Part shown: positions 1,800 to 29,918 of the stretch, piece after piece
How positions within the stretch are numbered: position 1 is the first letter of the stretch
How the letters are laid out: every line of letters begins with the position of its first letter
IMG/VR virus record: IMGVR_UViG_3300044723_010558
Length of the DNA stretch: 30,477 nucleotides
Direction: 5' to 3' (one strand)
Source: a virus
Notes under the pieces: generated by a model
Seen by the model: the letters and a program-made list of their open reading frames with translations, nothing else
What the model was told of the DNA's origin: nothing
Database searches by the model: none
Translations under genes and position numbers: made by a program

Positions 1800-1800
1800 A

Positions 1801-2733: not shown

Positions 2734-2736
2734 AAA

Positions 2737-11380: not shown

Positions 11381-14300
11381 ATGAGCCACGAAGAAAAATT
11401 AGACACATTCATATCGCGATGGAATAACTTAGGGCCTAAAACAATATGTCCATCTGTAGTTTTTGCTTCAACTATCACACAAGGCCCACATTTAGGTATG
11501 GTTGGTATAGATAGAGCCGTGGCTCACCATAAAGATTTAAAAAAAGAATCTACTTCTTTTTATCAAACTGTTGATATTTTATCGGAAGGTGAAGTTCACG
11601 GTTTATGTGATGCTTTTGGGCAATCTATCTTTTTATCTAACGACCAAAATAAAAATAGCGATTATTTTAAAGGCATATATTTAAATGACACACCAGTAAA
11701 AAATACTAAAACAAATACGTATAATTATAGAACAGCTTTTTCAGAAATAAGATTAGGTACAGAAGACCAATTACATTTTTCAGATCTAACGCAGGGCTTG
11801 TCTTTTGCTAAATCATCTCAGACGTTTAATTATAATGTTCAATTATTTGCTAATGTTTTTGACACAGCTTTAAAGAACGTGACAGTAAAAGGTCAAGAAT
11901 TAAAATTTTTAGATGGAGATAATAATAGGAGTGGTTATCCATATGATACAGTTATACCAACTATATATAAACCTGATTTTATATATTCAGAATTTCCCTT
12001 TGTTCATACTGTGACAAATCATAATGTAGATTCTGTTGTTATTAATGTAGCTTATACAGGACGATATCAATCTAGCAGTGGAAGTGCTTATTCAGCTGGA
12101 GTAACTTTTGTAATAGAGGTGGGGCATGTTGGCGATGAATTAAGTCTAGGGGAAGGTGGTTCGGTTGGTTATGTAGTTTGTTCTATTAGAGGTTTGGCTT
12201 CTTCTGAATATATCAGAAGTCATCACATTCCTCTTCCTGATTCAGGCGGAACGAAATATAGATTTGTTAGAGTGACTAGAGTTGATAGAGATTTTGGGCC
12301 AGCATTTGTTCAGGGAGATAAAAGTTTGGCTATAAATTCTATAGTAGAAAATATATCAGAAAAGCTAAGGTATCCGAATAGCACTTTAATCGCTAATATT
12401 TTTGATGCTTCAGCATTTGGGCAAATACCAAAAAGATCATATGATTTAAAACTTTTAAAAATTAATGTGCCCTCTAATTATGATCCTGAATCAAAAATAT
12501 ATTCTGGAAACTGGAATGGCACATTTGCCCCAAATAAACAATGGTCTGATAATCCAGCATGGATTTTGTACGATATCATTACTAACAATAGGTATGGTTT
12601 AGGGAAATATGCTTTTCAGCAAGCTATGCTAGATAAATGGAATTTATATTCTATTGGTAAATATTGCGATGAATTGCTGCCAACTGGTAATACTGGATTA
12701 CAACCGCCAATAGGTTTTTCTACAGACTCTTCTTCCGCTATATTTAGCATACCTATTACAAGTGAAAACACAAGGACGGATCTACAGTCTATATTTGAAG
12801 TGGGCTCAGAAATTTGTTTTTTAGATTTAAAAAATAGTTCATCTGAAGATGTAAATTTGAATTATAGAGCTATAATAAAAAAAACACGGATTGATGGGCT
12901 AGTATTTAAATTTGAAATTGTTAGAGATTTTGGGGTGGATAAAATATTTTTTGATTATCCTGAACTTAAAAGAGCTTACCTTTATCAGAGAGGGAATTCT
13001 TCTCAGAGCGCTAAAAAATGGCTAATAGATTTGTTAATTAATAAACAAGCAGAATCTTACTTATCAAACAGTAGGTCTGCAATTTTTTATAATTATTACT
13101 ACAATTCATATTCTTTAAACTCTTCTGTAACATCTGGTTATATAGTTAGGCAATATGAAAATGAGAGACCTATTTTAGAACCGAGATTTGCTTGCAACAT
13201 TGTATTCACAGGGCAAGACGAAGCTTTAAATACTATTAATAATATTGCTGCTGTTTTTAGAGGTATAACCTATTGGAATGAAGGGCTAGTTTATCCATCT
13301 ATAGATAAATTAAAGGACCCAATTTTGATGTTTAATAATAGTAATGTTGTTGGGGGTAGCTTTGGTTACACAGGGAGCGCAAAAACATCTAGAACCTCCA
13401 GTGTTGTTGTTAGATACAACGATGCTGATGACAATTTTAAAACTAAAGTCGCATACGCTGAAGATTTTGCTGCTTTGAGGCAATTTGGCTATAATGAGCA
13501 AGAAGTAGTAGCAATAGGCACAACATCACGATCCCAAGCCAAAAGAATCGCAGATTGGATTTTATATACAAATCAAACAGAAACTGATGTGGTGCAGTTT
13601 TCAACAGGGCAGGAAGGTAGTATTTTATTGCCGGGAGATATTATTTTAATACAAGATAATTTTAAATCAATCAATAGATACGGAGGTAGAATCAGTAATA
13701 TTAATTTTAGAGATAAAAGCGTTACTTTAGACAAGGGCATAAAAGAAAATATTGTTGGTCAAAAAATATATTTTATGGTGCCTAAATCTACAACTTCTTC
13801 TAAAGATCTTTCTAATTTAGCGAAACAAAGGCAAAACACAAATAATAAAGGGATAACAGATTCGGAAATTGACAATCAAACTACCCCGCAAATCAAATAC
13901 TTTACAATAGCATCAGTGTCTGACGGCAACGTGGTAACCATAAATGAAACAACAGACCCAGATTTTAATTTAATCACCAGAGGAACAATATGGTCTGTGG
14001 AAAATTCTAATACAGGATATGATATAAAAGGAATAAAATATCGTGTGTTGTCTGTGGAAGAAAAAGCGTTAAATGAGTTTATGATTACAGCAATGATGTA
14101 TAATGCAACTAAATTCGAAGCCTTAGAAAGAAATAAGAACTTAGAAGAAAATCAAAACTCAGATGAGCTTAAATTTAGTTTATCTGATTATCCAACCAAG
14201 ACAGTTGCAAGTGATAGTTTCACTACTTCTGACGCAAATATAGATGATCAAATTTACGATGCTTATTTTGTTAAAGAAAAAAGCGATGACGACATAAAAT

Positions 14301-14524
14301 TAGAAGTAACTTTTGATTTTGGCACTGAAGACTTAAGTAATATTGGTGGTTACGTGGTAGATTTTTTTGTTTTGGGTAAAAATTTAAGATTTTGTCTAGA
14401 TGGTAGCGATAATAGAAGTTTTTCTGTATTTTTAGGAAATAGAAGTTTATTTCCTGAAAAAGGTTACGGTTATAAAGTGTATGTATATGATAAGGATTTC
14501 AAATTAGAACAATTGAATATTTAA
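11381..14524 (+). CDS. gpJ: Lambda gpJ-like baseplate hub / central tail fibre protein
   Basis: DILSEGEVHGL, IYLNDTPV, LRYPNSTL, F..IPKRSY, YSGNWNGTF...WSDNPAWILYDIITNNRYGLG, YCDE, EPRFACN, VRYND.DDNFK, IGTTSRSQAKRIADWILYTN..ET..V.F.TG.EG..L.PGDII.IQD, RYGGRI, YRVLSVEE. All are gpJ-family motifs in the expected order. Confidence 0.93.
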   Translation: MSHEEKLDTFISRWNNLGPKTICPSVVFASTITQGPHLGMVGIDRAVAHHKDLKKESTSFYQTVDILSEGEVHGLCDAFGQSIFLSNDQNKNSDYFKGIYLNDTPVKNTKTNTYNYRTAFSEIRLGTEDQLHFSDLTQGLSFAKSSQTFNYNVQLFANVFDTALKNVTVKGQELKFLDGDNNRSGYPYDTVIPTIYKPDFIYSEFPFVHTVTNHNVDSVVINVAYTGRYQSSSGSAYSAGVTFVIEVGHVGDELSLGEGGSVGYVVCSIRGLASSEYIRSHHIPLPDSGGTKYRFVRVTRVDRDFGPAFVQGDKSLAINSIVENISEKLRYPNSTLIANIFDASAFGQIPKRSYDLKLLKINVPSNYDPESKIYSGNWNGTFAPNKQWSDNPAWILYDIITNNRYGLGKYAFQQAMLDKWNLYSIGKYCDELLPTGNTGLQPPIGFSTDSSSAIFSIPITSENTRTDLQSIFEVGSEICFLDLKNSSSEDVNLNYRAIIKKTRIDGLVFKFEIVRDFGVDKIFFDYPELKRAYLYQRGNSSQSAKKWLIDLLINKQAESYLSNSRSAIFYNYYYNSYSLNSSVTSGYIVRQYENERPILEPRFACNIVFTGQDEALNTINNIAAVFRGITYWNEGLVYPSIDKLKDPILMFNNSNVVGGSFGYTGSAKTSRTSSVVVRYNDADDNFKTKVAYAEDFAALRQFGYNEQEVVAIGTTSRSQAKRIADWILYTNQTETDVVQFSTGQEGSILLPGDIILIQDNFKSINRYGGRISNINFRDKSVTLDKGIKENIVGQKIYFMVPKSTTSSKDLSNLAKQRQNTNNKGITDSEIDNQTTPQIKYFTIASVSDGNVVTINETTDPDFNLITRGTIWSVENSNTGYDIKGIKYRVLSVEEKALNEFMITAMMYNATKFEALERNKNLEENQNSDELKFSLSDYPTKTVASDSFTTSDANIDDQIYDAYFVKEKSDDDIKLEVTFDFGTEDLSNIGGYVVDFFVLGKNLRFCLDGSDNRSFSVFLGNRSLFPEKGYGYKVYVYDKDFKLEQLNI

Positions 14525-14528
14525 AAAT

Positions 14529-17500
14529 ATGAGTTTTACTAAATATCTATCCCAAACACCTCAAGATTTTGGGCAAGCTTTACAGGTATCCGGGTTTTCC
14601 GTAACAAATTCAGCTGCAGACGCATCGTATGTTGCTAATTTAACGCCAACTTCTGACCCGTTGTTTATCAGCGGAAGCGGCGTACCTGCGGGAGCTTTAA
14701 TATCAAGTGGTGATTTTTGGAGAGAAAACCCATATATACAATGGAGCTTATATAACCCTACCAACAATAAAGTTTATGATAATCAAAAATTATCCAGTTT
14801 AAATTTTTTCTCAGGTTTTGACTTAAGCATTAAAGATGAAACTGGTCTACTTATTTCAACGCTAGAGACGGGATACTATAAAAATTATTATGAGATAGAT
14901 ATTAATAGTTTAAAAGATGATTTTGATTATTTTAGTGGGTTAGATGAAAGAAGGTTCAGATTTGAGGTAGTTTCAAATGATTATTATGGCAGAAAACATA
15001 CAGGTATTTTCTTTTTGACCTGTGAAAGACCAGATATCACGGGGCTATCGGCCTATATAGGAAAAGAAATAGTTTTCTTACCGGAATTCTCTAAAAATTC
15101 AGGTGTCAACGCTTTGCATTTGTGTATAGGAACTGGAGCTAATTTTGATGTTTTAGAAACAGGATCTGCTAATAATCCAATTGCTAAAATGCAAATTAGG
15201 CCTGACAATGGCGATGTTAGCAATTTTAGATACCAGCATCAGCCACCATTAAATTCAGGTTATTACTATGGGTTTTACGCTGAAGACGTTTATGGCACTG
15301 GAGCAGCTTATATTTATCCTTCGTCGATAAAACCTTTTGAAATAGATCCTTTACATTACAATATAAAACCTTCTGGTTTTAGAGGCAAAGTGATTGTAGA
15401 AAGAGATTCTTTAAATAAAGATATAAAACCTTATTTTAAAGCATCGATAAACAAAGATTTTACTTTGGACAAAACTCAATATGAAGTTTTTGTTTTTCAA
15501 AGTGGGTCTAGAGAACTAGAAGATTCATTTTCAATAGATTCCCAGTCGATTAAAAATGTTAAATATTATGTTCATGGTAGCGGAGAAAATAGGATAGATT
15601 CTTTATTTTATTCTGGGGACAGATTCAGGGGTCAAGATTACTATTATAGTGGCGCGAATTCAGAGCCTGTATTTTCTGTTTACAATACTACAGGTATTCA
15701 ATGGAAAGAGCACACAATTATATTGGATAATCAAGCTTCTTTACCCGGAGGTTATTATACAGGTCAATCACCTGTAACAGAAATAGCTATAGCAGCAGGT
15801 AATACTACTGGAAACAAGATTTATTTGGGGGTTGAAATAGATCCTGATAGTAAACAATTTTATTTTTATCCTTCTGGGGGATATTATGGATCTGGTATTT
15901 ATACAGGAACTTATGCGACTTCTTTAACTGGCGGCTATTATGTTTATGAAAATTATGGCCCAAGTGGTCCAAGCGGTCCAAGTGGTCCAAGTGGACCAAC
16001 AGGTCCACAATCAAGTGGATACGCTACACAGATTACGGGCATAACAGGATCTTTAGTGGCAACTAATTTGTCTGGGTTCATATCTACAAATTACGAGCCT
16101 AATTTTTCATATAATCTTTCTCCTGATAACGAATATTATTTCAAAATACGTCCTATTGATAGGTACGGAAAGAAAGGTTCATTTAGTGATTTAATTTATA
16201 TTAGCTCTAATGACATTACGTCTGCTGTTACTGGCGCAGGATATACCACAGGTATCATTAATGGTGATACTGCAAGTGGTATAGCTTATTATAATGCAGA
16301 TTTAGATGTCTTAAATATTTCTGATAGAGTTCTTGCTAGCGGAGAAGGTTTATCTCTTAGCGGTTATTTGTATGATACTACAGGCTCTACCGGAGCAGCA
16401 GGTTATGTTTTAACTTCTAGAGAAAGCGGCGTTTTCTGGGAAGAAGTTGGCCAAGGAGATGGTACTATTAGTGGCAGCGGTACTGCGACCTACATACCAA
16501 TGTGGTCTGGCACAACTGAACTAACAGACAGTAATATATATCAAAGTGGATCTAGTATCGGTATTGGAACGACCAGCCCCGGTAAAGATTTACATATTGT
16601 TGGTGATACTCGTTTAGAAGGCTATCTTTACGATTACAACAACACAACTGGTGCAGCCGGTTATGTGTTAACATCAGAAGAAAATGGTCCTCAGTGGAAA
16701 CAGATTGAAGACGTATTGTCTGGTGTTGGCGGTAGCGGCGCGACTAACTATGTTGCTAAATGGTCTGATGAAGATACATTAACAACAGGTATTTTATACG
16801 ACAACGGTACTAGTGTTGGTATTGGCACGACTACTCTTGCTGAAGCTTTAACAGTTAATGGTAGAGTAGAAGCTGACGAATTTATTGGCGATTTAAGAGG
16901 GCCAGTAGTATTTAAAGCTAATGCTGGAGAAGCTATCACAAAAGGCGAAGCGGTATATATTTCTGGTATTAGCGGCAACAAAACTGTTGTTGCTCTTGCT
17001 GATGCAGATAATGCATCAAAGATGCCAGCATTTGGTGTAGCTTATGAAACAGTTAGTCAAAATTCTGATATTACTATTGTTACTTTTGGTATTGTTACTA
17101 ACTTAGATACTTCTGCTTACAGTGAAGGTACTGAGTTGTTTGTTTCTACAGTGCCCGGACAACTCACAGGAGTTGCACCTACCGGTGAATCTGCTTTACT
17201 GCAAAAACTTACAAAAGTAACCAGATCAGATAATTCTGCTGGTTCCATGACGGTAATGGGCGCTGGTAGAACTAATGCTGTACCAAACTTAAATGAGGGC
17301 AGATTATTTGTTGGTAATGCAAATGATGAGCCTGTAGCAGATGGTACTGTTCATATTGATATTGCTAATTCTAAAGTTGGTATAGGTACTTCTACTCCGT
17401 CTACAGAACTGCATGTTACAGGCAAAGTAACTATAGAAACTATAGATTTAGATGCTTCTTTAACTGAATTTTTAGTTATTGATAGTTCCGGGGAAATACA

Positions 17501-20500
17501 CAAAAGAACAAGTGGCGCTGATGGCAGCAGCGGAACATCAGGAACTTCAGGCACATCTGGGTCTTCTGGCACTTCTGGTACCTCAGGAACCACGGGAACA
17601 TCTGGAACTTCAGGATCAAGCGGTACCTCAGGAACAACTGGCACTTCAGGATCAAGCGGTACTTCAGGATCTTCTGGAACAAGTGGAAGTAGTGGTTCGT
17701 CTGGCACCACTGGAACTTCTGGAACCTCTGGATCTTCAGGTACTTCAGGAACTGGTGGAACATCTGGTTCTTCGGGTACTACCGGAACTTCAGGATCAAG
17801 CGGTACTTCAGGTAGCGCAGGTTCAGCTGGGTCTTCAGGAACTTCTGGAACTAGTGGAATATTGAACTTAACAGGTCCCAATAATTTCACAATAATAAAA
17901 GACAGTGCTACATCAGGATTTGCTGGTGGAATATATTATTCAGGCACAGGAGGAACAACGGGTAGTGTTGGTATAGGTACTACAGGTCCTCTCTCAGAAC
18001 TCCATATAGAAAAAGGCTTAACAGGTGATAGCTCTCAGCTTAGAATTACTAACGGCACTGGCGCGACTATCAGAATGGGTATCACAGGTTCTGGTGCTAA
18101 TGAAGCTGCCCACATAAAAACTAATAGCGGTGAAAATTTAGAGTTTCAAATTGGTCGAGCTGCAGACAGTGCTTCACCGGATGTACTGTTTAAATCTGGT
18201 GGTGGGGTTCAATTCAGTGTTTATGGTTCTGGCACTTTTACAGGGACAGCAACCCAAAGGTTAGCTGTAGATTCAAGTGGTAACATTATTGAAATACCTA
18301 TTGGCTCTGGAGCTATCGATGGATGTGGCACTCAGTGCTATATACCCAAATGGCATGATGCTAACACAATATGCGACTCAGTTATATACCAAGATGGTAA
18401 TAATATTGGTATTGGAACAATAACTCCAGCTGGTAAATTAGATGTTGCTGGAGATGTGTATGTAAATGGAGTTAGGGTTGGAAAAGGTTCTAATTCTGTA
18501 GCAGGAAATACAACGGTAGGTTGTAACGCATTAGCTTGTAACACATCTGGTGGTTTCAATACAGCTATAGGTAATTCAGCTTTAGAGTGTAACACTAGCG
18601 GTTATGATAATACAGCGGTAGGACAGTGCGCATTAAAAAATAATGATTACGGTACCCGTAATACTGCTATAGGAAGAGCGGTAGGTATCAATATAACTAG
18701 TGGAGCTAATAATACTGGTGTTGGTTGGGAAACATTAAATAACACTACAAGTTCAAGTAGGAATACAGCTCTAGGCGCTAGAGCTTTAAGAAACAATACT
18801 ATAGGTTGTTGTAACACGGCAAGTGGTTCATATTCTCAATGCTCTAACACATCAGGTAAACTTAATACTTCATACGGAGCTGAATCTTTAAGGTATAACA
18901 CTACTGGTAATTGTAATACTTCAATAGGAGTTTTATCTTTATATTGCAACACAACAGGTAACGCCAATACAGCCGTTGGGGTTAATAGCTTAAAAAGTAA
19001 TACTACTGGTTTCGCAAATACTGCATCTGGTGGTTATGCGTTAACTGCTAACACAACTGGTAGTTGTAGTGTTGCTATTGGATATAACGCGTTAAAATCA
19101 AATACGTCAGGATATAGTAATAATGCAGTAGGTTATCAGTCTTTATATAATAATACAACAGGTATACATAATCAAGCTTTTGGTAAAAATAGTTTATATA
19201 GTAATACCACTGGTGGCTATAACACGGCATCTGGTTACAGATCTTTAGTTTGTAACACAACAGGGTGTCAAAATACCGCTTTTGGTATGTATACCCTTAC
19301 AGAAGTACTTGGTAACAGTTGCAATGTTGCGGTAGGTGCTTACGCTCTTCGTTATAATACAGAATCGGCAAACTCTGCACTTGGTTGGCAAGCTTTGTAT
19401 TGCAACACAACAGGTACTCGTAATGTTGCTGTTGGTTATACTTCTTTAGCATATAATACAGTTGGAGGACAAAACACAGCTATAGGTCATTCCGCTTTAA
19501 TATCTAATACCACTGGTAGTCAACACACCGCAAGCGGTAATTACGCATTAGAAAGTAATACTACAGGTGTTAGAAATACTGCCCTTGGTACTGAATCAAT
19601 GAGATGCAACACTATCGGTAATGATAATGTTGCTGTAGGTAGAGCTTCCCTTAATAAAAACACTAGTGGGTCTTCTAACACAGCTATTGGTAAAGACGCT
19701 ATGTTTAGCAATACTTCTGGCGCAAGAAACACTGCTGTGGGTTTAAGATCCTTATATATTAATACCACGGGTGATAACAATACAGCTTCTGGTTATTACG
19801 CCTTGAGAAATAATGTCACAGGAGCAGATAATACAGCTTTAGGTTATAGAGCTTTAAGATTTAATACAGCTGGATCTAACACAGCGGTTGGTGCTAGTGC
19901 GTTGTTTACTAATACGACTGGCACATTTAACACTGCTGTTGGTAAAAATGCATTATATGCTAATACAACAGGTGGCTGCAATGCTGCTTTAGGTCATTAC
20001 TCTTTAAGTTTAAATACAACGGGGTCAAGAAATACAGCAAGCGGGAGGTATGCTCTTAAATCTAATACAACCGCGAATGATAATACCGCTACTGGTTATT
20101 TGGCTATGGGGTGTAATACTACTGGTAGTTACAATACTGCATCTGGTAAATACTCGTTATTATGCAATACAACTGGCTTACATAATACTGTTTCTGGTTA
20201 TAAAGCTTTAATGTGTAATACTAGCGGCTCTTATAATGTAGCTTTTGGTTCTGCTGCTTTAGAATGTACAACAGGGGGTAATAATACAGCTGTTGGTCAT
20301 GAAGCTTCTCGTCGTGCAACAAATAATTGTTACAACACAGCTGTAGGTTTTCAATCTTTATATTGTAATCTAACTAACGAAACAACAGCTGTTGGTTTTA
20401 GATCCTTATTTGTTAACACTACAGGTTGTTATAATACCGCTTTAGGATTTGAATCGTTGTTATGTAATACAACTGGTTTAGCTAATACAGCGGTTGGTTA

Positions 20501-23500
20501 TTCTTCACTGAGAGCTAATGTTGGTTTGAAGAATACATCTGTAGGATCAAAATCGTTAATTTACAATACAACAGCAAATGATAATGCCGCGTTAGGTTAC
20601 GCATCTCTCTATTTCAACACTACTGGTAATAATAATACTGCTTCAGGAGCTTATTCATTATGTTCAAACACTGTAGGTAGTTGTAATACTGCTTTTGGTA
20701 GATCTACTTTGCTTTATAATACAGGTGGTTTGTTAAATTCAGGTTTAGGTTATCAAGCTTTGTTTTGTAACGTAACTGGTTGTTATAATACTGCAAGTGG
20801 ATCTTATGCACTGAAAAACAATACTGCAACAGGTAATACTGCATTAGGTTATGCAGCAGCTGGGTCAAATACAACAGGAACTGGTATAGTTGCTATTGGT
20901 TGTAGAGCTTTAAATGCTAGTACAACTGGTAATAATAATGTAGCGGTAGGTAATGCTGCTATGTACTGTAACACATCCGGTAGATGTAATACTGCGGTAG
21001 GTACATATTCTCTGTATAATAATACCTCTGGTAACCTCAATACAGGTTTGGGTTATTATACTTTAGGTAGCACAACGACAGGTAGTTGCAATACAGCCAC
21101 GGGTTATTTCGCTTTATGGAATAATACAACAGGTAACTATAATGTTGCTATTGGATGGAATGCTTTATATGCTAATAAACAATCTACTAATGTCGCAGTA
21201 GGAGCTGAAGCAATGCGCTGTAATACCGATGGTATAAGAAGCACATCTATTGGTACTGGAGCTCTAAAAACTAACAGCACAGGTAATTGTAATAGTGCTT
21301 CTGGTTATAGAGCATTATATTGTAATACAACTGGTAGTAATAATACAGCTTCAGGTGTCTATGCGTTATGTTTTAATACCACAGGAGGCGCGAATGTAGC
21401 TTTTGGTCATGTAGCAGCAAGAGCTAATACTAATGGGGTAGGTAATACAGCTATCGGTTATGGTACCTTACAGACTAATACTTCAAGTTCTTATAGTACT
21501 GCTCTAGGTTATAAAGCTTTAAATGTAAATACCTGCCCTCAGAACACAGCAATAGGTGGTTTCGCGATGGCTTGTAATACTACAGGTTATTGTAATACAG
21601 CTGTAGGTTATACCGCATTGTATTTAAACACTACAGGTATTCATAATACCGCTGTAGGTAGAAACGCTTTACAGCAAAATACAAGTGGATATCAAAACAC
21701 AGCAATTGGTGCTGATGCTTTAAAAAATAATATATTAGGTAGACAAAGTACAGCGGTTGGTTTTTATTCTCTATGTAATAATTGTGGTAATTTTAATACT
21801 GCATCTGGAGCCTATTCCATGATGACAAATACTACTGGTGAATACAATAGTGCTTTTGGTAGAACAGCTTTGTATTTAAACACTAGTGGTTGTCATAATA
21901 CAGCACTCGGAGCGAATGCTCTATGTAGTAATACTACTGCTTGTTATAGTACAGCGATTGGTTCATATGCATTAAAATCGAATACTACAGGTGAAAACAC
22001 AGCCATTGGTTTTTGTTCATTATTTTCAAATACTACAGGTACTGGTAACGTTGCCGTTGGTATTAATACCCTAACCCAAAATACTACAGGAACAAGAAAT
22101 ACTGCGGTTGGTTCGGCGGCTTTATATAGTAATACTACAGGATCATATAATTCAGCTTTTGGATGTGGTGCTTTGCAGGTTAGTACAACTGGCGACTACA
22201 ATACTGCGATGGGTGAAAGAGCTCTCAAAAACAGTACTACCGCGAGCCAAAATGTGGCTTATGGTTTTTGCTCGATGTATGCTAATACTACCGGTGGTTG
22301 CAATACCGCTTTAGGTTATATTGCAATGTTTAATAATACTACTGGTTATTTTAATACAGCTATAGGTTATAGATCGTATGAATGTAATCAAACAAGCTCT
22401 GCTACAACCGCTATAGGTACATGCTCGCAAAGAACAACAACTATAGGTGGGAATACTTCGGTAGGTCATCACAGTTTAAGATTTAACACTACTGGTAACT
22501 TTAATACAGCTGTAGGTACTAGTGCAATGGAGTATACAAGTACTGGTGTTAGGAATACAGCTATAGGTTATGCTGCAGCTGTTTTAACTTCAACTGGTCA
22601 ATCAAATACAACATCTGGGTCATATTCTTTACATCAAAATACTACTGGTAGTTATAATTCCGCGTTCGGAGAAAGAGCGATGAGGTTGAATACTACTGGT
22701 GCTTTGAACTCAGCATTTGGTAGACTAGCTCTTTGTAGTAATACAACTGGTAGCTATAACACTGCAGTAGGGGCCCAGTCATTATTAAGTAATACGACTG
22801 GGAGTGATAATACAGCTAGTGGTTATCTTACTCAATATTCTAATACTACAGGTTATTCAAATGTATCTATTGGTAATAGATCTTTATGTAGCAATACTAC
22901 AGGAGCTTTAAATACAGCTCTCGGTATAAGCGCGTTAAGATTCAATACAGCTAACTGGAATACAGCTGTAGGAGCAGAAGCGTTATTCTGTAATACTTCA
23001 GGAACTAGAAATACAGGCTCTGGTTATAGAGTAATGTATAATAATACTACAGGAAACTATAACTCTGCTTTTGGTGATCGTGCTTTGTATTGTAATACAA
23101 CTGGTAGTGGTAATACTGCTTCTGGTTATAGAGCTCTTTGGGGTAATAGAACAGCCAATAATAATACAGCTATTGGTTGGTATTCTATGTTATCGAATAC
23201 AACGGGTTTCAATAACACAGCGAGTGGTAAATATGCTTTAAGAAACAACTCAACGGGGTATAATAATTCAGCTTTCGGAGAAAATTCTTTAGCTTGTAAT
23301 ACAACTGGTCATACTAATATAGCGTTAGGTAGGTTCACTCTACTTAATAATAATGGCTCTTTAAACATTGCTATTGGTAATGGAGCGATGCAGAGCAATA
23401 CTACATCATTAAAGAATGTAGCTATGGGTCATTCATCCATGTATGCAAATACAACTGGTAATGAAAATACTGCTAGCGGTCATTACTCATTACAAAATAA

Positions 23501-26500
23501 TACTACAGGATGTGATAACGCTGCTTTTGGATCGTGTGCTTTACAACAAAACACTACCGGAATTTTAAATACAGCAGTTGGTTCTAAAGCTTTGCACTGT
23601 AACATTGTAGGTACTAACAATACAGCTGTAGGAACTGTAGCTTTGAAATATAATACTGGCCATGCAAACACCGCTGTCGGTGCTTATGCAATTTGGGCGG
23701 GTACTAGCTCAGGTTACAATACTGCAATAGGTAGAACTGCTTTATACCAACTTACAACAGGTAACTACAATACAGCTAGTGGTTATAGATCATTATTTAC
23801 TACCACAATAGGTTGTGAAAACGTTGCTACTGGAAGCTTTTCCTTGAATTCTACAACGACTGGTGTGAGAAATACAGCTTTAGGTTACGCAGCTTTACAT
23901 GATAACACAACTGGTAGCTATAATGTCGCTGTTGGTTGGAACGCATCTAGAACATCTACCACATACGTAAACACTATTGCTATTGGCTGTTGTGCTCAGC
24001 CACCAGCTAACAACACTACAGTTATAGGTAATGGTTCTACAACATGCTCTATATTCCCAGCAGGACAAATGAAGTTCGGCAGCTATGGCAGCGGAACTTA
24101 TTCGGGCGTTCATAATAAATTTTTAGGAGTAGATACTTCTGGTAATGTTTTAGAAATTAGTTCTGGCGTAGGAACAGGAAGCGTTACTTCCAGTAGTTGC
24201 ACCACTTGTTATCTTACAAAATGGACAAATGGCCCGAATGAAGTTATTGGCAATTCTGTAGTTTATGAAGATTCTTGCGGAAATATTGGTATAGGAACTG
24301 TAGCTCCTGCCGCCAAACTTCAGGTTACAAATCAAGCTATTATTGATGGCTTGACAATAGGTCAAGGCGGTGGAGATGTATCTACTAATACTGCTTTAGG
24401 TCAATGCGCGTTAAACGCTAATACGACTGGGGCTTATAATACTGCCGTTGGTGATGCTGCTTTATGTAGTAATACTTCAGGTGGATGTAACGTTGCTGTT
24501 GGAGCATTTGCATTAGTGGAAAATACTTTAGGTGGTAAAAATACAGCTGTAGGTCACGGAGCATTAAATAAAACCACTACTGGTTGTAGAAATACAGCTA
24601 GCGGTCATTATTCAATGTTTTGGAACACGACTGGTATATTTAATAGCGCATATGGTACTTGTTCGTTGAAAGTTAATTCTTCAGGATCTCAAAACGTTGC
24701 TTTTGGTTATAATTCAATGATGTGTAATTCTACGGGGACCGGTAATACTGCTAGCGGTTCGTATTCTTTATTTAGAAATACAACAGCATATAATAATACA
24801 GCATACGGTAGTTCTGCTTTAAAATGTAACACAACAGGTTGTAATAACACCGCTTTAGGGGCAGGCACTCTTTTAGCTAATACTACGGGTAGCTGCAATG
24901 TTGCAGTTGGTATGTGCTCTTTGTATTGTAACACAACAGGTAGTTGTAATACAGCTCTAGGTTACCAATCCTTAAGAAACAATACAGGGGCTTACAATAC
25001 TGCAGTTGGTAATAGTGCTTTAACATCTAATACTACAGCAATCAATAATACCGGTATAGGTAATCAAGCTTTATACTATACAACATCCGGTAATTATAAC
25101 ACAGCTCTTGGAGCAGTTGCTTTGTGTAGTAATAGTACAGGAAAAGCCAATACAACCACCGGTAGTTATTCTTTGAGAGGTAATACTACAGGTTGTTACA
25201 ATACTGCTAGTGGTTATTACGCTTTACGTTGTAATACTACTGCAAATCATAACGCTGCATTCGGAGCTTACACCATGCAGTATAATACTACTGGTAGACA
25301 AAATACAGCTGTAGGTAATCAAGCTTTAAGGTATAATACTACAGGTTTTGTTAATGCTGCTCTTGGTTATCAATCTTTACTATCGAATACAACAGGTAAT
25401 TATAATACTGCTAGTGGGGCTTATGCTTTAGTATCGAATACTACTGGTAATGAAAATACAGCTACTGGTTATCTGTCAATGCGGAATAATACAACAGGCC
25501 TTAATAACGTAGCATATGGAGTATATTCTTTATGCGGTAATACTACTGCTAATAATAATGCTGCATTTGGTCATAGAACTTTAAAAGAAAATACCACAGG
25601 TAGTAAAAACACTGCTAGTGGTTTTTATGCTTTAAGATATAATACTACAGCTAACGCTAATACTGCTTCAGGATATAGGTCTTTGACTTGTAATACGACA
25701 GGATGTAGAAATACCGCTTCTGGTGCATATGCGTTGGATAAAAATACAACTGGTGTTAGTAACACAGCTATTGGAGCTAGTACTTTAAGTTATAATACTT
25801 CTGGTTACTATAATACCGCCATTGGGGATCAAGCAATGTTCACCAATACTACTAGTAGATTTAATACAGCTATCGGTATGTATGCTTTATATGCTAACTC
25901 TACTGGTAATTATAATACTGCTAGTGGTTATAATGCATTAGTATGCACTACAAGTGGTTATAATACTGCTACCGGCTCTGGAGCATTATTATATAATACA
26001 TCAGGAGCAATGGGATCTGCTCATGGTTTCCGAGCTTTATTTAGGAATACCACAGCGTCTCAAAATACAGCATTAGGTGCCTACGCTTTATGTGGTAATA
26101 CAACCGGAGACAAAAACACTGCCAGTGGTTATCAAGCTTTATTATACAATACAGTAGGTGTTAGAAATACTGCTAGTGGTCATTATGCTTTAAGGCAAAA
26201 TACTACAGGCAATGAAAACGCTGCAGTAGGTTATCAAGCTTTACTTAATAATACAACCGGTGGTGGAAACATGGCTTTCGGTGCCCATGCTCTTTGCTCT
26301 AACACATCTGCATCTACTAATTCTGCTTTTGGCTTATGTTCCTTATACAGCAATACGACAGGAACTAACAATGCTGCATTTGGTGGGTTTTCGTTATACT
26401 CTAATACTACTGGTAATTGCAATACTGCTCTGGGTAGGTCTTCGATGGGCGCTAATACAACAGGTTGTTTTAATACAGCAATTGGTACTTTTGCTCTAGA

Positions 26501-29210
26501 TGCTAACACTACTGCGTGTTATAATTCTGCGGTTGGTTATAGGGCTTTATGTAAAAATACAACAGGTTATTTCAATACTGCTATTGGGGTAGATGCATTA
26601 TTTAACAATACAACCGGTATTTCCAATACAGCATTAGGTCTTAACAGCTTATTTGGGAATACGACGGGATCTTATAGTACAGGTGTAGGTCATGGAGCTT
26701 TATTTTGTAACACAACTGGGCGTAATACTGCAGTTGGTTTCACTGGTTTATATTTTAATACAACAGGTAGTTGTAATACAGCTTTAGGGGATAGTGCATT
26801 GTATAATAATACTACTGGAAACGAGAATACCGCTAGTGGTTATCAGGCAATGGTAACAAATACTACGGGTAGTTATAACGCTGCTTTTGGTAGGTCTGCG
26901 TTATTATCTAACACAACTGGTAATCATAATACAGCTAGTGGTTACCATGCTATGTTATTGAATAGTACTGGTTCACGTAACTCTGCATTTGGTAGAACAA
27001 CATTAAGAGGTAATACTATTGGTAGTTGTAATACAGCAATGGGTATGTATTCTATGTATAGTAATACTACCGCTGATGGTAATACAGCATATGGTTATGC
27101 TTCATTGTTCGCGAATACAACTGGTGGTCAGAATACTGCAAGCGGTTTTTATTCGTTATGTAAAAACACGACTGGAAGTTATAATACTACAACCGGGGGT
27201 TACTCTTCATTTAATAACACAACAGGATGTGGTTTAGTTGCTTTAGGTTATGGAGCTGCATACTCTAATACAACAGCGAATCATACTACAGCTTTAGGTT
27301 ACCAATCTTTATACGATGTAACTACAGGTAGCTCTAATACTGGTTCAGGTTATAGGTCTGGTTTCAATATTTCTACCGGTGGACATAATGTCGCGATGGG
27401 TTGGAGAGCTATGTATGGTCCGAAAACGCCATCTGGTAACATAGCTATAGGTAGTGAAACAATGTACGCTCTAGGTACTGGCGATTGTAATGTTGCTATT
27501 GGTCATCAGTCATTAAATCAAAATACTGCTGGTCAGCTCAATACTGCAGTTGGTGGGTGTACGTTAAGATACAATACAACTGGTCAGTACAATACAGCTA
27601 TAGGTTATAGCGCGCTAAGAGCTAACACTACAGGCACTATTAACACCGCTGTTGGTATGTATGCTATGTTGAGTAATACAACAGGTCGTTGTAATACAGC
27701 AACTGGATATTACTCTCTAGGGTCAAATACAACAGGTAGTTATAGTACAGCAATGGGTTATTACTCGTTGAATTCCAATACAACTGGTCGTAATACTGCG
27801 TATGGTATGGAATCGCTGAGATTTAACACTACTGGAAGTTGTAATACTGCGCTGGGGGATAATGCGATGTATTGCAATACTGGTGGTTTTTGGAATACTG
27901 CGGTAGGTTTTTCAGCTTTATTAGCTAACACTACTGCTTGTTACAATACAGCTATAGGGTTTCAATCGTTACTTTGTAATACAGCTAATAACAACACAGC
28001 TGTTGGTTATAGATCTTTATGGTGTAACACAACAGGAATATGTAATACTGCAGTTGGTATGCATGCGTTATCTAAAAATACAACTGGTGAAATTAACGCT
28101 GCATTAGGTCATTATGCTCTTGCTTGTAATACAACCGGCGCTGGTAACACAGCAATGGGTGCTTGTTCAATGAGAGATAATACAACAGCAGCATATAACA
28201 CTGCTTTTGGTCAGTTTACATTAGTGTATAATACAACAGGTGCTTCTAATACTGCTTTAGGTAGAACCACTTTATTCGTTAATACAATAGGGTGTCAAAA
28301 CGTTGCTGTTGGTATGAATGCAATGTGTTGTAATACAACAGGTAGTCTGAATACAGCTCTTGGTTATTGTACTTTAATTTGTAATACTACAGGTCTTTAT
28401 AATACTGCATCAGGGTCAGAATCTTTACGTGCAAATACAACAGGTTTCTGCAATACTGCATATGGTTATAACGCCGGATATAATATAACTACTGAAAGCA
28501 ATACAATTTCTATAGGTATCAACGCTGTATCTTGTGGAACTAACACAACAGTTATAGGTAACGGATCTACGACATGCTCTGTTTTTCCTGCTGGCCAAAT
28601 GAAGTTTGGCAGCTATGGGTCTGGAACTTACTCAGGAACACCAACTTACAGATTAGCTGTTGATTCAAGTGGGAACGTCATTGAAATATCTGTTGGTGCT
28701 GGAGCAATAGATGGTTGCGGAACAACATGTTACATACCTAAATGGAATGATTGCAACACAATATGCAACTCTGTTATTTATGAAGATGCTTCTGGTAACA
28801 TTGGTATTAATTGTACTACTCCATCTTACAAGCTGCATGTTAACGGATCATTTGCAGCTACATGCAAATCATTCGTCATCAATCACCCCACTAAATGTGG
28901 CCATATGCTGCGCTATGGATCTCTTGAGTCTCCATACCACGGCGTTAGATTAACAGGTAAGTCCTGCACAGTTTGTGGATCAACAGAAGTTCAGTTGCCA
29001 GATTATATTCATGCATTAGTTCATGAAGAAGATGTCAATGTTCAAATCACAAATTACAAACACGGCCATGTGATGTGGGTGGATGATGTGGATGTCGATA
29101 ACAATAAATTCACAGTAAAAACAGAAACAGAAGATGTTAAAGAATTTTATTGGTCATTCACTGCAGTAAGAAAAGATGTAGACAGATTACAGACAGAATA
29201 TGCCGAATAA
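14529..29210 (+). CDS. Giant (4893 aa) modular tail fibre / adhesin with beta-solenoid repeats and collagen-like segments
   Basis: Single uninterrupted 14.7-kb ORF directly after gpJ. It has an FN3-like N-terminal region (EYYFKIRPIDRYG), repeated IGIGT.TP...LHV.G fibre linkers, G-X-Y stretches, about 3200 aa of 17-residue repeats, and a C-terminal KSFVINHPTK...LRYGSLE domain of a type seen at the ends of phage fibres. Confidence 0.85.
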   Translation: MSFTKYLSQTPQDFGQALQVSGFSVTNSAADASYVANLTPTSDPLFISGSGVPAGALISSGDFWRENPYIQWSLYNPTNNKVYDNQKLSSLNFFSGFDLSIKDETGLLISTLETGYYKNYYEIDINSLKDDFDYFSGLDERRFRFEVVSNDYYGRKHTGIFFLTCERPDITGLSAYIGKEIVFLPEFSKNSGVNALHLCIGTGANFDVLETGSANNPIAKMQIRPDNGDVSNFRYQHQPPLNSGYYYGFYAEDVYGTGAAYIYPSSIKPFEIDPLHYNIKPSGFRGKVIVERDSLNKDIKPYFKASINKDFTLDKTQYEVFVFQSGSRELEDSFSIDSQSIKNVKYYVHGSGENRIDSLFYSGDRFRGQDYYYSGANSEPVFSVYNTTGIQWKEHTIILDNQASLPGGYYTGQSPVTEIAIAAGNTTGNKIYLGVEIDPDSKQFYFYPSGGYYGSGIYTGTYATSLTGGYYVYENYGPSGPSGPSGPSGPTGPQSSGYATQITGITGSLVATNLSGFISTNYEPNFSYNLSPDNEYYFKIRPIDRYGKKGSFSDLIYISSNDITSAVTGAGYTTGIINGDTASGIAYYNADLDVLNISDRVLASGEGLSLSGYLYDTTGSTGAAGYVLTSRESGVFWEEVGQGDGTISGSGTATYIPMWSGTTELTDSNIYQSGSSIGIGTTSPGKDLHIVGDTRLEGYLYDYNNTTGAAGYVLTSEENGPQWKQIEDVLSGVGGSGATNYVAKWSDEDTLTTGILYDNGTSVGIGTTTLAEALTVNGRVEADEFIGDLRGPVVFKANAGEAITKGEAVYISGISGNKTVVALADADNASKMPAFGVAYETVSQNSDITIVTFGIVTNLDTSAYSEGTELFVSTVPGQLTGVAPTGESALLQKLTKVTRSDNSAGSMTVMGAGRTNAVPNLNEGRLFVGNANDEPVADGTVHIDIANSKVGIGTSTPSTELHVTGKVTIETIDLDASLTEFLVIDSSGEIHKRTSGADGSSGTSGTSGTSGSSGTSGTSGTTGTSGTSGSSGTSGTTGTSGSSGTSGSSGTSGSSGSSGTTGTSGTSGSSGTSGTGGTSGSSGTTGTSGSSGTSGSAGSAGSSGTSGTSGILNLTGPNNFTIIKDSATSGFAGGIYYSGTGGTTGSVGIGTTGPLSELHIEKGLTGDSSQLRITNGTGATIRMGITGSGANEAAHIKTNSGENLEFQIGRAADSASPDVLFKSGGGVQFSVYGSGTFTGTATQRLAVDSSGNIIEIPIGSGAIDGCGTQCYIPKWHDANTICDSVIYQDGNNIGIGTITPAGKLDVAGDVYVNGVRVGKGSNSVAGNTTVGCNALACNTSGGFNTAIGNSALECNTSGYDNTAVGQCALKNNDYGTRNTAIGRAVGINITSGANNTGVGWETLNNTTSSSRNTALGARALRNNTIGCCNTASGSYSQCSNTSGKLNTSYGAESLRYNTTGNCNTSIGVLSLYCNTTGNANTAVGVNSLKSNTTGFANTASGGYALTANTTGSCSVAIGYNALKSNTSGYSNNAVGYQSLYNNTTGIHNQAFGKNSLYSNTTGGYNTASGYRSLVCNTTGCQNTAFGMYTLTEVLGNSCNVAVGAYALRYNTESANSALGWQALYCNTTGTRNVAVGYTSLAYNTVGGQNTAIGHSALISNTTGSQHTASGNYALESNTTGVRNTALGTESMRCNTIGNDNVAVGRASLNKNTSGSSNTAIGKDAMFSNTSGARNTAVGLRSLYINTTGDNNTASGYYALRNNVTGADNTALGYRALRFNTAGSNTAVGASALFTNTTGTFNTAVGKNALYANTTGGCNAALGHYSLSLNTTGSRNTASGRYALKSNTTANDNTATGYLAMGCNTTGSYNTASGKYSLLCNTTGLHNTVSGYKALMCNTSGSYNVAFGSAALECTTGGNNTAVGHEASRRATNNCYNTAVGFQSLYCNLTNETTAVGFRSLFVNTTGCYNTALGFESLLCNTTGLANTAVGYSSLRANVGLKNTSVGSKSLIYNTTANDNAALGYASLYFNTTGNNNTASGAYSLCSNTVGSCNTAFGRSTLLYNTGGLLNSGLGYQALFCNVTGCYNTASGSYALKNNTATGNTALGYAAAGSNTTGTGIVAIGCRALNASTTGNNNVAVGNAAMYCNTSGRCNTAVGTYSLYNNTSGNLNTGLGYYTLGSTTTGSCNTATGYFALWNNTTGNYNVAIGWNALYANKQSTNVAVGAEAMRCNTDGIRSTSIGTGALKTNSTGNCNSASGYRALYCNTTGSNNTASGVYALCFNTTGGANVAFGHVAARANTNGVGNTAIGYGTLQTNTSSSYSTALGYKALNVNTCPQNTAIGGFAMACNTTGYCNTAVGYTALYLNTTGIHNTAVGRNALQQNTSGYQNTAIGADALKNNILGRQSTAVGFYSLCNNCGNFNTASGAYSMMTNTTGEYNSAFGRTALYLNTSGCHNTALGANALCSNTTACYSTAIGSYALKSNTTGENTAIGFCSLFSNTTGTGNVAVGINTLTQNTTGTRNTAVGSAALYSNTTGSYNSAFGCGALQVSTTGDYNTAMGERALKNSTTASQNVAYGFCSMYANTTGGCNTALGYIAMFNNTTGYFNTAIGYRSYECNQTSSATTAIGTCSQRTTTIGGNTSVGHHSLRFNTTGNFNTAVGTSAMEYTSTGVRNTAIGYAAAVLTSTGQSNTTSGSYSLHQNTTGSYNSAFGERAMRLNTTGALNSAFGRLALCSNTTGSYNTAVGAQSLLSNTTGSDNTASGYLTQYSNTTGYSNVSIGNRSLCSNTTGALNTALGISALRFNTANWNTAVGAEALFCNTSGTRNTGSGYRVMYNNTTGNYNSAFGDRALYCNTTGSGNTASGYRALWGNRTANNNTAIGWYSMLSNTTGFNNTASGKYALRNNSTGYNNSAFGENSLACNTTGHTNIALGRFTLLNNNGSLNIAIGNGAMQSNTTSLKNVAMGHSSMYANTTGNENTASGHYSLQNNTTGCDNAAFGSCALQQNTTGILNTAVGSKALHCNIVGTNNTAVGTVALKYNTGHANTAVGAYAIWAGTSSGYNTAIGRTALYQLTTGNYNTASGYRSLFTTTIGCENVATGSFSLNSTTTGVRNTALGYAALHDNTTGSYNVAVGWNASRTSTTYVNTIAIGCCAQPPANNTTVIGNGSTTCSIFPAGQMKFGSYGSGTYSGVHNKFLGVDTSGNVLEISSGVGTGSVTSSSCTTCYLTKWTNGPNEVIGNSVVYEDSCGNIGIGTVAPAAKLQVTNQAIIDGLTIGQGGGDVSTNTALGQCALNANTTGAYNTAVGDAALCSNTSGGCNVAVGAFALVENTLGGKNTAVGHGALNKTTTGCRNTASGHYSMFWNTTGIFNSAYGTCSLKVNSSGSQNVAFGYNSMMCNSTGTGNTASGSYSLFRNTTAYNNTAYGSSALKCNTTGCNNTALGAGTLLANTTGSCNVAVGMCSLYCNTTGSCNTALGYQSLRNNTGAYNTAVGNSALTSNTTAINNTGIGNQALYYTTSGNYNTALGAVALCSNSTGKANTTTGSYSLRGNTTGCYNTASGYYALRCNTTANHNAAFGAYTMQYNTTGRQNTAVGNQALRYNTTGFVNAALGYQSLLSNTTGNYNTASGAYALVSNTTGNENTATGYLSMRNNTTGLNNVAYGVYSLCGNTTANNNAAFGHRTLKENTTGSKNTASGFYALRYNTTANANTASGYRSLTCNTTGCRNTASGAYALDKNTTGVSNTAIGASTLSYNTSGYYNTAIGDQAMFTNTTSRFNTAIGMYALYANSTGNYNTASGYNALVCTTSGYNTATGSGALLYNTSGAMGSAHGFRALFRNTTASQNTALGAYALCGNTTGDKNTASGYQALLYNTVGVRNTASGHYALRQNTTGNENAAVGYQALLNNTTGGGNMAFGAHALCSNTSASTNSAFGLCSLYSNTTGTNNAAFGGFSLYSNTTGNCNTALGRSSMGANTTGCFNTAIGTFALDANTTACYNSAVGYRALCKNTTGYFNTAIGVDALFNNTTGISNTALGLNSLFGNTTGSYSTGVGHGALFCNTTGRNTAVGFTGLYFNTTGSCNTALGDSALYNNTTGNENTASGYQAMVTNTTGSYNAAFGRSALLSNTTGNHNTASGYHAMLLNSTGSRNSAFGRTTLRGNTIGSCNTAMGMYSMYSNTTADGNTAYGYASLFANTTGGQNTASGFYSLCKNTTGSYNTTTGGYSSFNNTTGCGLVALGYGAAYSNTTANHTTALGYQSLYDVTTGSSNTGSGYRSGFNISTGGHNVAMGWRAMYGPKTPSGNIAIGSETMYALGTGDCNVAIGHQSLNQNTAGQLNTAVGGCTLRYNTTGQYNTAIGYSALRANTTGTINTAVGMYAMLSNTTGRCNTATGYYSLGSNTTGSYSTAMGYYSLNSNTTGRNTAYGMESLRFNTTGSCNTALGDNAMYCNTGGFWNTAVGFSALLANTTACYNTAIGFQSLLCNTANNNTAVGYRSLWCNTTGICNTAVGMHALSKNTTGEINAALGHYALACNTTGAGNTAMGACSMRDNTTAAYNTAFGQFTLVYNTTGASNTALGRTTLFVNTIGCQNVAVGMNAMCCNTTGSLNTALGYCTLICNTTGLYNTASGSESLRANTTGFCNTAYGYNAGYNITTESNTISIGINAVSCGTNTTVIGNGSTTCSVFPAGQMKFGSYGSGTYSGTPTYRLAVDSSGNVIEISVGAGAIDGCGTTCYIPKWNDCNTICNSVIYEDASGNIGINCTTPSYKLHVNGSFAATCKSFVINHPTKCGHMLRYGSLESPYHGVRLTGKSCTVCGSTEVQLPDYIHALVHEEDVNVQITNYKHGHVMWVDDVDVDNNKFTVKTETEDVKEFYWSFTAVRKDVDRLQTEYAE
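15957..16010 (+). repeat. Short collagen-like repeat (GPS)4-GPT-GPQ
   Basis: Six Gly-Pro-X triplets read directly from the sequence. Confidence 0.95.
17523..17855 (+). repeat. Proline-free collagen-like repeat, 37 G-X-Y triplets (GTS/GSS/GTT)
   Basis: Gly at every third residue for 111 aa. 71 of 74 X/Y positions are Ser or Thr; the exceptions are one Gly and two Ala. Confidence 0.97.
18507..24030 (+). repeat. 17-aa (51-nt) tandem repeat array, block 1 (about 108 units)
   Basis: Units such as NTTGNCNTSIGVLSLYC / NTTGNANTAVGVNSLKS / NTTGFANTASGGYALTA, with occasional 16-aa units. The count is estimated as length/51. Confidence 0.93.
24385..28560 (+). repeat. 17-aa (51-nt) tandem repeat array, block 2 (about 82 units)
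   Basis: Same consensus N-T-T-G-x-x-N-T-A-x-G-x-x-[AS]-[LM]-x-x. The count is estimated as length/51. Confidence 0.93.
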
Positions 29211-29246
29211 AAGTAGAAAAAACGAACCAAACATCTAAAATAATTA

Positions 29247-29918
29247 GTGAAAAAAGTCCTAATTGGAACTCCTGCGCATGACGGCAGATTAGATGTTTGG
29301 TATACCAATAGTTTGGTTAATACTATAAAAAGATCTTTTTCGGAAGGTTATAGTATTGATCCTATTTATACCAGCTTTGATAGTTTGATTCAGAGGGCAA
29401 GAAACAGTCTTTTCAAAATCGCTGTTGAACAAAATTTTGATTATTTGTTTTTTATTGATAGCGATGTCGAATGGGACCCAGAATGGGTTTTCAGATTGTT
29501 GAAATATCCTGAAGATGTGATTGGTGGGCCGCTGGTAAAGAAAAGTGACGATAAAGAAGGATACACTTGTAAAATTTTAAACAAAACTTTACAATACAAC
29601 GATTCAAAAACTTTAATTAAAGTTGATGCTGTGGGTACTGGTTTTATGAAGTTATCTCGTAAAGCTATTATGGATTTATGGAACAACAGCCCAATATATA
29701 AAAATGAAGAAAATCCGTACGACAGTACAGATCGTATGATTTGCAATGTGGAACTACAAAACGGCATATTGATCAGTGAAGATTTCATTATTTGTCAAAA
29801 ATTAAAAAAATTTAACTACACTATATGGATGGACCCTACATTTACTTTGAATCATTTAGGTCCTAAAAAATTCTTGGGAGATTTTCCTAAGTTTATGAAG
29901 AAAAGCGGTTACGCATGA
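29247..29918 (+). CDS. GT-A fold (GT2-like) glycosyltransferase
   Basis: GTG start. KVLIGTP N-terminal strand, SLIQRARN, DYLFFIDSDV (DxD motif), DAVGTGFM, SEDF, and a C-terminal NHLG. Confidence 0.8.
   Translation: MKKVLIGTPAHDGRLDVWYTNSLVNTIKRSFSEGYSIDPIYTSFDSLIQRARNSLFKIAVEQNFDYLFFIDSDVEWDPEWVFRLLKYPEDVIGGPLVKKSDDKEGYTCKILNKTLQYNDSKTLIKVDAVGTGFMKLSRKAIMDLWNNSPIYKNEENPYDSTDRMICNVELQNGILISEDFIICQKLKKFNYTIWMDPTFTLNHLGPKKFLGDFPKFMKKSGYA

Follow-up and report, generated by a model that had tools for sequence, protein, structure and literature searches.

In this study, we have analyzed a 30,477-nucleotide (nt) stretch of viral DNA (IMG/VR record IMGVR_UViG_3300044723_010558; the window, by which we mean this whole stretch), nearly half of which is occupied by a single gene for a protein of 4893 amino acids (aa). 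We consider it likely that this protein serves an uncultured phage, whose tail tip is of the lambda type, as a side or central tail fiber and that its 17-residue units form beta-solenoid rods. The gene is one uninterrupted open reading frame (ORF) of approximately 14.7 kb, running from an ATG start to a stop codon, and a hidden Markov model (HMM) of the unit counted 187 to 188 copies. A preliminary description of this DNA had proposed one giant gene of this size, approximately 190 repeats, a fiber several times longer than classical phage fibers, and a period of 17 distinct from the 14-residue repeat of YadA heads. All of these points stand: the ORF is intact, the numbers given for it and its repeats were correct, and the Pfam YadA_head family gave no significant match. 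The gene belongs to a phage tail module and directly follows a gpJ-like gene, with tape measure, gpM, gpL, gpK, and gpI genes upstream. The segments of the fiber, with window coordinates and fiber residues, are as follows.

14529..29210, plus strand: whole fiber ORF, 4893 aa plus stop; the first 60 aa are without a signal-peptide-like hydrophobic run.
14529..15956 (aa 1-476), plus strand: N-terminal conserved domain, the proposed anchor, conserved in relatives while distal parts differ.
15957..16010 (aa 477-494), plus strand: mini collagen-like run of 6 G-P-S/T triplets, kept in the metagenomic proteins P0002 and P0003.
16011..17513 (aa 495-995), plus strand: proximal shaft modules with the capping-loop motif [VI]G[IV]G[T]..P...L at aa 677 and 950.
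17514..17864 (aa 996-1112), plus strand: collagen-like G-[ST]-[ST] stretch of 39 triplets (PF01391, phrog_1806, collagen PDB chains).
17865..18506 (aa 1113-1326), plus strand: connector with junction module copy 1 (three-copy alignment).
18507..23972 (aa 1327-3148), plus strand: array 1, 107 units of 17 aa (unit HMM; PHROGs 23837, 6002, 4636).
23973..24386 (aa 3149-3286), plus strand: inter-array connector with junction module copy 2 (three-copy alignment).
24387..28502 (aa 3287-4658), plus strand: array 2, approximately 81 units of 17 aa (unit HMM; aa 3490-3795 modeled).
28503..28787 (aa 4659-4753), plus strand: array terminator and junction module copy 3, the motif region of which matches 8ojn and 8ond by sequence.
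28788..29207 (aa ~4754-4893), plus strand: C-terminal tip domain, a predicted beta-sandwich (phrog_17490; AlphaFold2; Foldseek).

The periodicity of the shaft is pronounced. Residue autocorrelation peaked at a lag of 17 (0.37 in the repeat region, compared with approximately 0.05 to 0.12 at other lags), and harmonics followed at 34 and 51; in a sliding window, the lag-17 signal was restricted to aa ~1290 to 3130 and ~3260 to 4650, and a lag-3 signal appeared at aa ~940 to 1110. The unit HMM recovered 187 units, spaced by 17 residues in 165 cases, by 16 in 18, and by 33 once, the last equivalent to one missed unit, which gives approximately 188 units in two arrays (107 + 81). The consensus, N-T-A-x-G-x-x-A-L-x-x-N-T-T-G-x-x, leaves seven variable positions; these are rich in Tyr, Ser, Asn, Cys, and Arg, Tyr being the commonest residue. 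The arrays are net basic (127 Lys plus Arg against 59 Asp plus Glu) and contain 190 N-x-S/T sequons. They are matched with E = 0 by PHROGs 23837 and 6002 ("virion structural protein") and 4636 ("tail spike protein"), at 1766, 1431, and 1347 bits, respectively, over 24 to 40 matched stretches, and no Pfam or NCBIfam model matched the 17-residue repeat. A recent tandem expansion was considered and rejected: no superperiod or block duplication was seen among the units, and identity was approximately 55 to 57% at every diagonal offset. The distribution of cysteine is uneven, with 107 of the 129 residues located within the arrays (18507-28502), nearly all at variable unit positions 7, 10, 11, 16, and 17, and only 2 in the first 1260 residues of the fiber. 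For a protein whose folding takes place in the cytoplasm, such Cys-rich arrays are unusual; disulfides could form only after release.

The fold of the repeat was predicted with AlphaFold2 (AF2) for a monomer of 18 units (aa 3490-3795), using an alignment of ten other nonoverlapping blocks of the same protein. The resulting model was all-beta, with a strand pattern recurring every 17 residues (mean predicted local distance difference test [pLDDT], 85; predicted template modeling score, 0.81). In an exhaustive search with VIA-align, all 306 model residues superposed on approximately 445-residue, 18-coil stretches of single-chain right-handed beta-helices (root mean square deviation [rmsd], 3.1 to 3.7 Å; Z, 18 to 23). 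The best superposition was with the phage Andhra tail protein 8egr_A (Z, 22.8; rmsd, 3.1 Å), and further ones were obtained with Vag8 (Z, 20.8), EtpA (Z, 20.2), and pertactin (Z, 18.0). Trimeric autotransporter heads had the highest sequence identity to the model (BpaC, 24%; UspA1, 23%) yet fitted it poorly (rmsd, 7.8 to 8.4 Å), as did the left-handed helices of LpxD and GlmU. On this model, each 17-residue unit is predicted to form one coil of a slim beta-solenoid that is probably right-handed; in our reading, the repeat resembles YadA-like heads in the style of its sequence but differs from them in register and period. The core and the turns would be built by the Asn, Thr, Ala, Gly, and Leu residues that are conserved in the unit, and the seven variable positions would face outward.

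The genomic setting is that of a phage tail. The fiber ATG lies 4 nt past the stop codon of the gpJ-like gene on the same strand, and all of the genes upstream share this strand: the end of the tape measure gene, three unmatched ORFs, a gpM-like gene (phrog_14), an unmatched ORF of 1005 aa, and then a block comprising gpL (phrog_18), a gpK-like gene, gpI (phrog_32), and the gene for the gpJ-like tip protein. The immediate neighbors of the fiber gene are the following.

11381..14524, plus strand: gpJ-like tail tip protein, 1047 aa (phrog_31 "central tail fiber J," E 9.8e-132; Pfam Phage-tail_3 and FNIII-A_GpJ).
29247..30475, plus strand: two glycosyltransferase genes directly downstream of the fiber, one GT2-like and one GT4-like, the latter cut by the window end.

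The N-terminal part of the fiber is preserved in relatives that differ elsewhere. Residues 1 to 750 are 61 to 64% identical in the metagenomic proteins P0002 (3242 aa) and P0003 (3773 aa), which share only these first ~750 aa with the fiber and have a different shaft and tip. A scan of viral contigs with the peptides of the fiber itself found nothing; once P0002 and P0003 had been included in a profile of the first 750 aa, five IMG/VR viral contigs with the same gene order were recovered. In four of these loci, the N-terminal domain is 61 to 64% (L003 to L005) or 39% (L006) identical. Since the relatives open with the same N-terminal residues, the fiber start codon is supported. These alignments show the pattern that is usual for fibers, with a conserved anchor and a swappable distal part. 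The 60.9-kb IMG/VR record that carries L006 (CheckV completeness, 42%) includes a large terminase subunit gene, which indicates that the relatives are real phages. From this completeness, the genomes of the relatives are probably of approximately 145 kb, and P0003 is carried on a 143.7-kb contig; going by the relative, the genome of this phage is probably large too. In all three contigs for which ORFs were listed (L003, L004, and L006), the fiber ORF runs off the contig end, at lengths of at least 899, 2530, and 1527 aa, respectively; complete copies seem to be rare in short-read assemblies, and the fiber lengths of this clade seem to be systematically underreported.

The N-terminal domain itself had no match in Pfam, NCBIfam, or PHROG, and the ESM Atlas gave weak leads to gpJ immunoglobulin-like domains (score, 0.81 to 0.84). 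Distal to it, fiber residues 722 to 948 are 31 to 42% identical to "tail fiber-like" proteins of cyanophages and a Flavobacterium phage. The long collagen-like stretch is an uninterrupted G-X-Y series in which 37 of the 39 triplets are purely Ser/Thr; it scored 38.9 bits with PF01391 (cutoff, 27.2; E 7.6e-10) and also matched phrog_1806 ("collagen like minor tail") and collagen chains in the PDB. The collagen-like stretches would imply three chains. A junction module of approximately 95 aa occurs in three copies (18171-18506, 24054-24386, and 28584-28898; 41 to 60% identity), placed before array 1, array 2, and the tip, with the pattern F-G-S-Y-G-S-G-T ... C-Y-I-P-K-W ... G-N-I-G-I-G-T..P..K-L; another copy is present in P0002. 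The module may act as a nucleation cap or as a hinge. The fiber contains five strict matches to the capping-loop motif V-G-G/N-pi-x-x-P-x-x-x-L and one variant before the tip. This loop was defined by Caulton et al. (2024) in crystal structures of trimeric Bdellovibrio MAT fibers and is found too in the S74-containing protein MyRF (PMC10769870). The region before the tip matches Bdellovibrio fiber chains by sequence (8ojn, E 5e-4; 8ond).

The tip was modeled with AF2 from an alignment of 33 short homologues, and its last ~90 aa form a predicted beta-sandwich (pLDDT, 85 to 98). The top Foldseek match of the tip in the PDB was the C-terminal region of the Bd2133 fiber (8ond; E 1.9e-4, with a low TM-score), followed by C-terminal sandwiches of tailspikes, for example, that of cyanophage Pam1 (rmsd, 2.1 Å over 72 columns). 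A search with the last 236 residues of the fiber (aa 4658-4893), which take in the end of array 2 together with junction module 3 and the tip, gave matches to 12,055 representative clusters at E <= 0.001, and among the matches listed, the tip domain lies at the extreme C terminus of proteins of 179 to 5875 aa. No Pfam or NCBIfam family covered the tip, and Peptidase_S74 (PF13884) had no match in the fiber.

We propose that the fiber is most likely put together in the cytoplasm from three chains and that its conserved N-terminal domain would dock on the gpJ-like tip. Beyond this anchor would come the short and long collagen-like spacers, the junction modules, and rods of 107 and 81 units, followed by the tip; each of the three junction modules carries the capping-loop motif known from trimeric S74/MAT fibers. 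The small C-terminal beta-sandwich would probably bind the receptor, and the basic, Tyr-rich surface of the rods may bind laterally. The trimeric state, the solenoid geometry, the length, and both binding roles are parts of this model that we infer. Several points weigh against it. The long collagen-like stretch is without Pro or charge pairs and may not be a stable triple helix. The solenoid is drawn from an AF2 model of a monomer, and the alignment behind it was shallow, consisting only of the protein's own repeats; a Foldseek search of the PDB with the 18-unit model returned nothing at E <= 0.001, and a profile search of PDB sequences with the repeats found no solved structure that shares them. 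The solved parts of MAT fibers are intertwined trimeric beta-helices (PMC10769870), and intertwined arrays would change the length per residue. Finally, the window is without capsid genes, so a tailocin-like element is formally possible for this contig.

The question of intertwining bears directly on the shaft, which could be an intertwined triple beta-helix, as in crystallized S74/MAT segments, rather than three side-by-side solenoids. Each array is bordered by capping-loop motifs, which in Bd3182 and Bd2133 are part of intertwined trimeric beta-helices, and many relatives of the fiber end in Peptidase_S74, whose known partners are intertwined stalks. However, the AF2 monomer folds confidently without partners into a closed solenoid in which each unit makes one coil, intertwined segments usually yield poor monomer models, and the closest sequence likeness among solved structures is to trimeric autotransporter heads (23 to 24% identity), in which each chain forms its own roll. 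We regard an intertwined shaft as quite unlikely; if it were correct, the length per residue would be nearer 0.04 to 0.07 nm and the arrays would measure approximately 140 nm or more. It is also conceivable, although unlikely in our judgment, that the rods are mainly a display or binding surface, either for reversible multivalent binding of host glycans or with N-x-S/T and Ser/Thr sites that are glycosylated by the downstream enzymes. Such a role would suit the 190 sequons, the basic charge of the arrays (127 against 59), the prevalence of Tyr at variable positions, the presence of TibA, a hyperglycosylated beta-helix, among the fold matches, and the fact that a solenoid is an uneconomical way of gaining length; in addition, glycosyltransferase genes directly follow the fiber gene both here and in Pelagibacter phage HTVC112P. 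The N-T-T motif is kept, however, in relatives without an adjacent glycosyltransferase (P-SSM2 and SPO1) and is thus probably structural, forming Asn and Thr ladders, and, to our knowledge, GT2 and GT4 enzymes are not protein N-glycosyltransferases. A bolder proposal, which we consider decidedly improbable, sees the fiber as a beta-solenoid longer than 150 nm, with two rods, joints, and disulfide locks, in which the ~190 N-T-T sites or the Ser/Thr-only collagen would be glycosylated by the two cotranscribed phage glycosyltransferases. Sugar-coated virion fibers of this type would, if the proposal is true, be new for phages of Gram-negative or marine hosts.

Two further explanations question whether there is a giant phage fiber at all, and we find both hardly credible. 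Bacteria such as Limnobacter and Patescibacteria encode many of the giant relatives on their chromosomes, and the gene might encode a bacterial surface adhesin, similar to MAT fibers or trimeric autotransporters, that merely adjoins prophage tail genes. Against this, we found no signal peptide (no hydrophobic run in the first 60 aa exceeds 3), membrane anchor, or S74 domain in the protein; 4 nt separate the gene from the gpJ stop codon, with both genes on one strand; and in at least four more viral contigs, the N-terminal domain is found together with the same tail module. As for an assembly artefact, in which a shorter repeat gene was inflated or chimerized by the assembler, the fiber genes of the IMG/VR relatives stop at contig ends, which indicates that such genes are hard to assemble. 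At the DNA level, however, the units have a mean identity of 56%, with 81% for the best single pair and 69% for the best 6-unit run; third codon positions between unit copies are near saturation (43.5%), and no long near-identical stretches were found among the units. This low identity makes collapse or expansion by the assembler very unlikely, and the array is old, to judge from its nucleotide divergence. Moreover, the frame stays open across 14.7 kb, the domain order is coherent, with a proper anchor, junctions, and tip, and an open frame of 4893 codons in DNA of 35 to 40% GC content cannot have arisen by chance.

The length of the proposed solenoid fiber can be estimated from its parts. With an assumed, canonical rise of 0.48 nm per unit, 188 coils would extend for approximately 90 nm (51 + 39 nm). 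The collagen-like stretches (117 + 18 residues at 0.286 nm) would contribute approximately 38 nm if helical, of which the long stretch accounts for ~33 nm, and the other ~1090 shaft residues would contribute 40 to 75 nm at 0.04 to 0.07 nm/aa, the range of MAT fibers (PMC10769870). On this modeling, an extended fiber of 130 to 200 nm with up to three joints is plausible. The preliminary description had suggested that the repeats form a solenoid and that the fiber is possibly longer than 100 nm. The first suggestion holds insofar as the AF2 monomer gives one coil per unit, while the geometry of the trimer goes beyond that model; likewise, ~90 nm is a fair value for the arrays at 0.48 nm per coil, and the total, which depends on trimer geometry, is only plausible.

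Among common fiber folds, the beta-solenoid provides the least length per residue, approximately 0.03 nm/aa, compared with 0.29 nm/aa for collagen. The preliminary description suggested that the filament could reach through a capsule or act as a search antenna. Given this 10-fold difference, reach alone poorly explains 3200 solenoid residues, and we consider it more likely that selection acted on stiffness or on the large lateral surface than on length alone. The fiber is notable for the number of its coils and for being a single polypeptide rather than for its reach. This raises the question of why a phage would devote approximately 10% of its genome to a fold with so small a gain in length per residue. 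The T4 long tail fiber (gp34 to gp37), which is jointed, approximately 145 nm long, and used for reversible host recognition, is of comparable overall length. Four proteins, none larger than 1289 aa and differing in fold, make up the T4 fiber, whereas a single polypeptide would suffice here.

The same 17-residue unit is found in gp48 of HTVC112P, a "putative tail fiber" (MN698246.1; QGZ18225.1), and likewise in HTVC111P. The HTVC112P fiber is 44 to 48% identical to the fiber described here over approximately 490 to 600 aa of repeats, and the local gene order is the same: tape measure, gpL, J-like tail protein, fiber, and glycosyltransferase. However, the HTVC112P fiber has 756 aa rather than 4893, the long collagen stretch was not seen in it, and the J-like proteins of the two phages are barely related. 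The HTVC112P glycosyltransferase (locus L001, 7971-8852) is GT9 heptosyltransferase-like (PF01075, 22.1 bits; cutoff, 22), in contrast to the GT2 and GT4 enzymes here. That glycosyltransferases of different families directly follow the repeat fiber in both phages hints at a recurring link between such fibers and glycosylation.

P0002 and P0003 resemble this fiber in their N-terminal 750 aa, including the mini-collagen run. They differ in that they have 30 and 5 of the 17-residue units, respectively, shafts composed mostly of the far more numerous capping-loop modules, and another tip domain. In the IMG/VR loci L003 to L006, the fiber is positioned after a gpJ-like gene, as it is here. The MAT fibers of Bdellovibrio bacteriovorus, in particular the non-S74 subgroup that includes Bd2133 (8ond; PMC10769870), have the capping-loop motif in common with this fiber, and they are modular trimeric fibers with a beta-sandwich tip instead of an S74 chaperone; a trimer would complete the likeness here. 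Unlike the protein studied here, which is phage encoded, without a signal peptide, and five times longer, MAT fibers are bacterial cell surface proteins of approximately 1000 aa, and they are not dominated by the 17-residue array, which is without a solved counterpart. YadA-like heads (BpaC, 7o23; UspA1, 3pr7; PF05658) also consist of short Asn/Gly/Ala-rich repeats with one coil per unit, but their period is 14 to 16 rather than 17. PF05658 matches are present in some giant relatives; in this fiber, the only match was to the array terminator (E 0.42; 11.5 bits against a cutoff of 25), and the YadA C-terminal membrane anchor had no Pfam match on the whole protein or on its C terminus.

The rarity of giant repeat fibers implied by the preliminary description was overstated. 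By tblastn, the repeat was found in 103 phage records, including those of Pelagibacter phages HTVC112P and HTVC111P (annotated as "putative tail fiber"), Roseobacter phages CRP-1 and CRP-7, Methylophilales phage Venkman (gp55), Prochlorococcus phage P-SSM2 (PSSM2_298; 1094 aa), and Bacillus phage SPO1 (gp2.52), and a marine cyanomyovirus single-virus genome has a 2491-aa ORF with the repeat. Giant relatives were sought in a collection of 5.8 billion proteins, and among the 1355 candidates scored, 267 proteins of 2.7 to 8.5 thousand aa matched at E <= 0.001. Their sources were phage-sized contigs as well as chromosomes of bacteria (Limnobacter, Patescibacteria, and others), and many of the proteins ended in Peptidase_S74. 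When the fiber and its 120 best matches were scanned with the unit HMM, 56 of the 121 proteins had at least 50 units; this fiber had the most and the next had 110, although the HMM was built from this fiber and so favors it. The predicted fold also matches giant-virus proteins, namely, a Bodo saltans virus "FhaB-like adhesion protein" (34 to 39% identity) and proteins of chloroviruses, Marseillevirus, and Pithovirus, as well as the "Chlorovirus glyco repeat" protein of Tenacibaculum phage pT24. The 17-residue repeat and the giant proteins built from it are, on these matches, widespread, and the unit would rank among the commonest fiber building blocks of marine and freshwater phages, giant viruses, and the surface fibers of many bacteria. 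The view of how phage fibers work is unchanged, this being an extreme case of a known fiber type. The gene is a clean, complete, and very long exemplar with clear module borders that can serve as a template for defining the family and for designing structural fragments.

Some minor features of the window were also noted. The sequences upstream of the fiber start (14500-14528) and of the next gene (29211-29246) are A/T-rich leaders, and no Shine-Dalgarno-like sequence was found in either. Together with a GC content of 31 to 43%, these leaders may hint at a host with weak Shine-Dalgarno usage. The 14.5 kb upstream of the fiber had no megablast match among 50,697 phage records. The 1005-aa ORF between the gpM-like gene and gpL (6313-9330) had no PHROG or Pfam match at the thresholds used, and a similar ORF of 987 to 1106 aa is located at the same place in L003 and L006.

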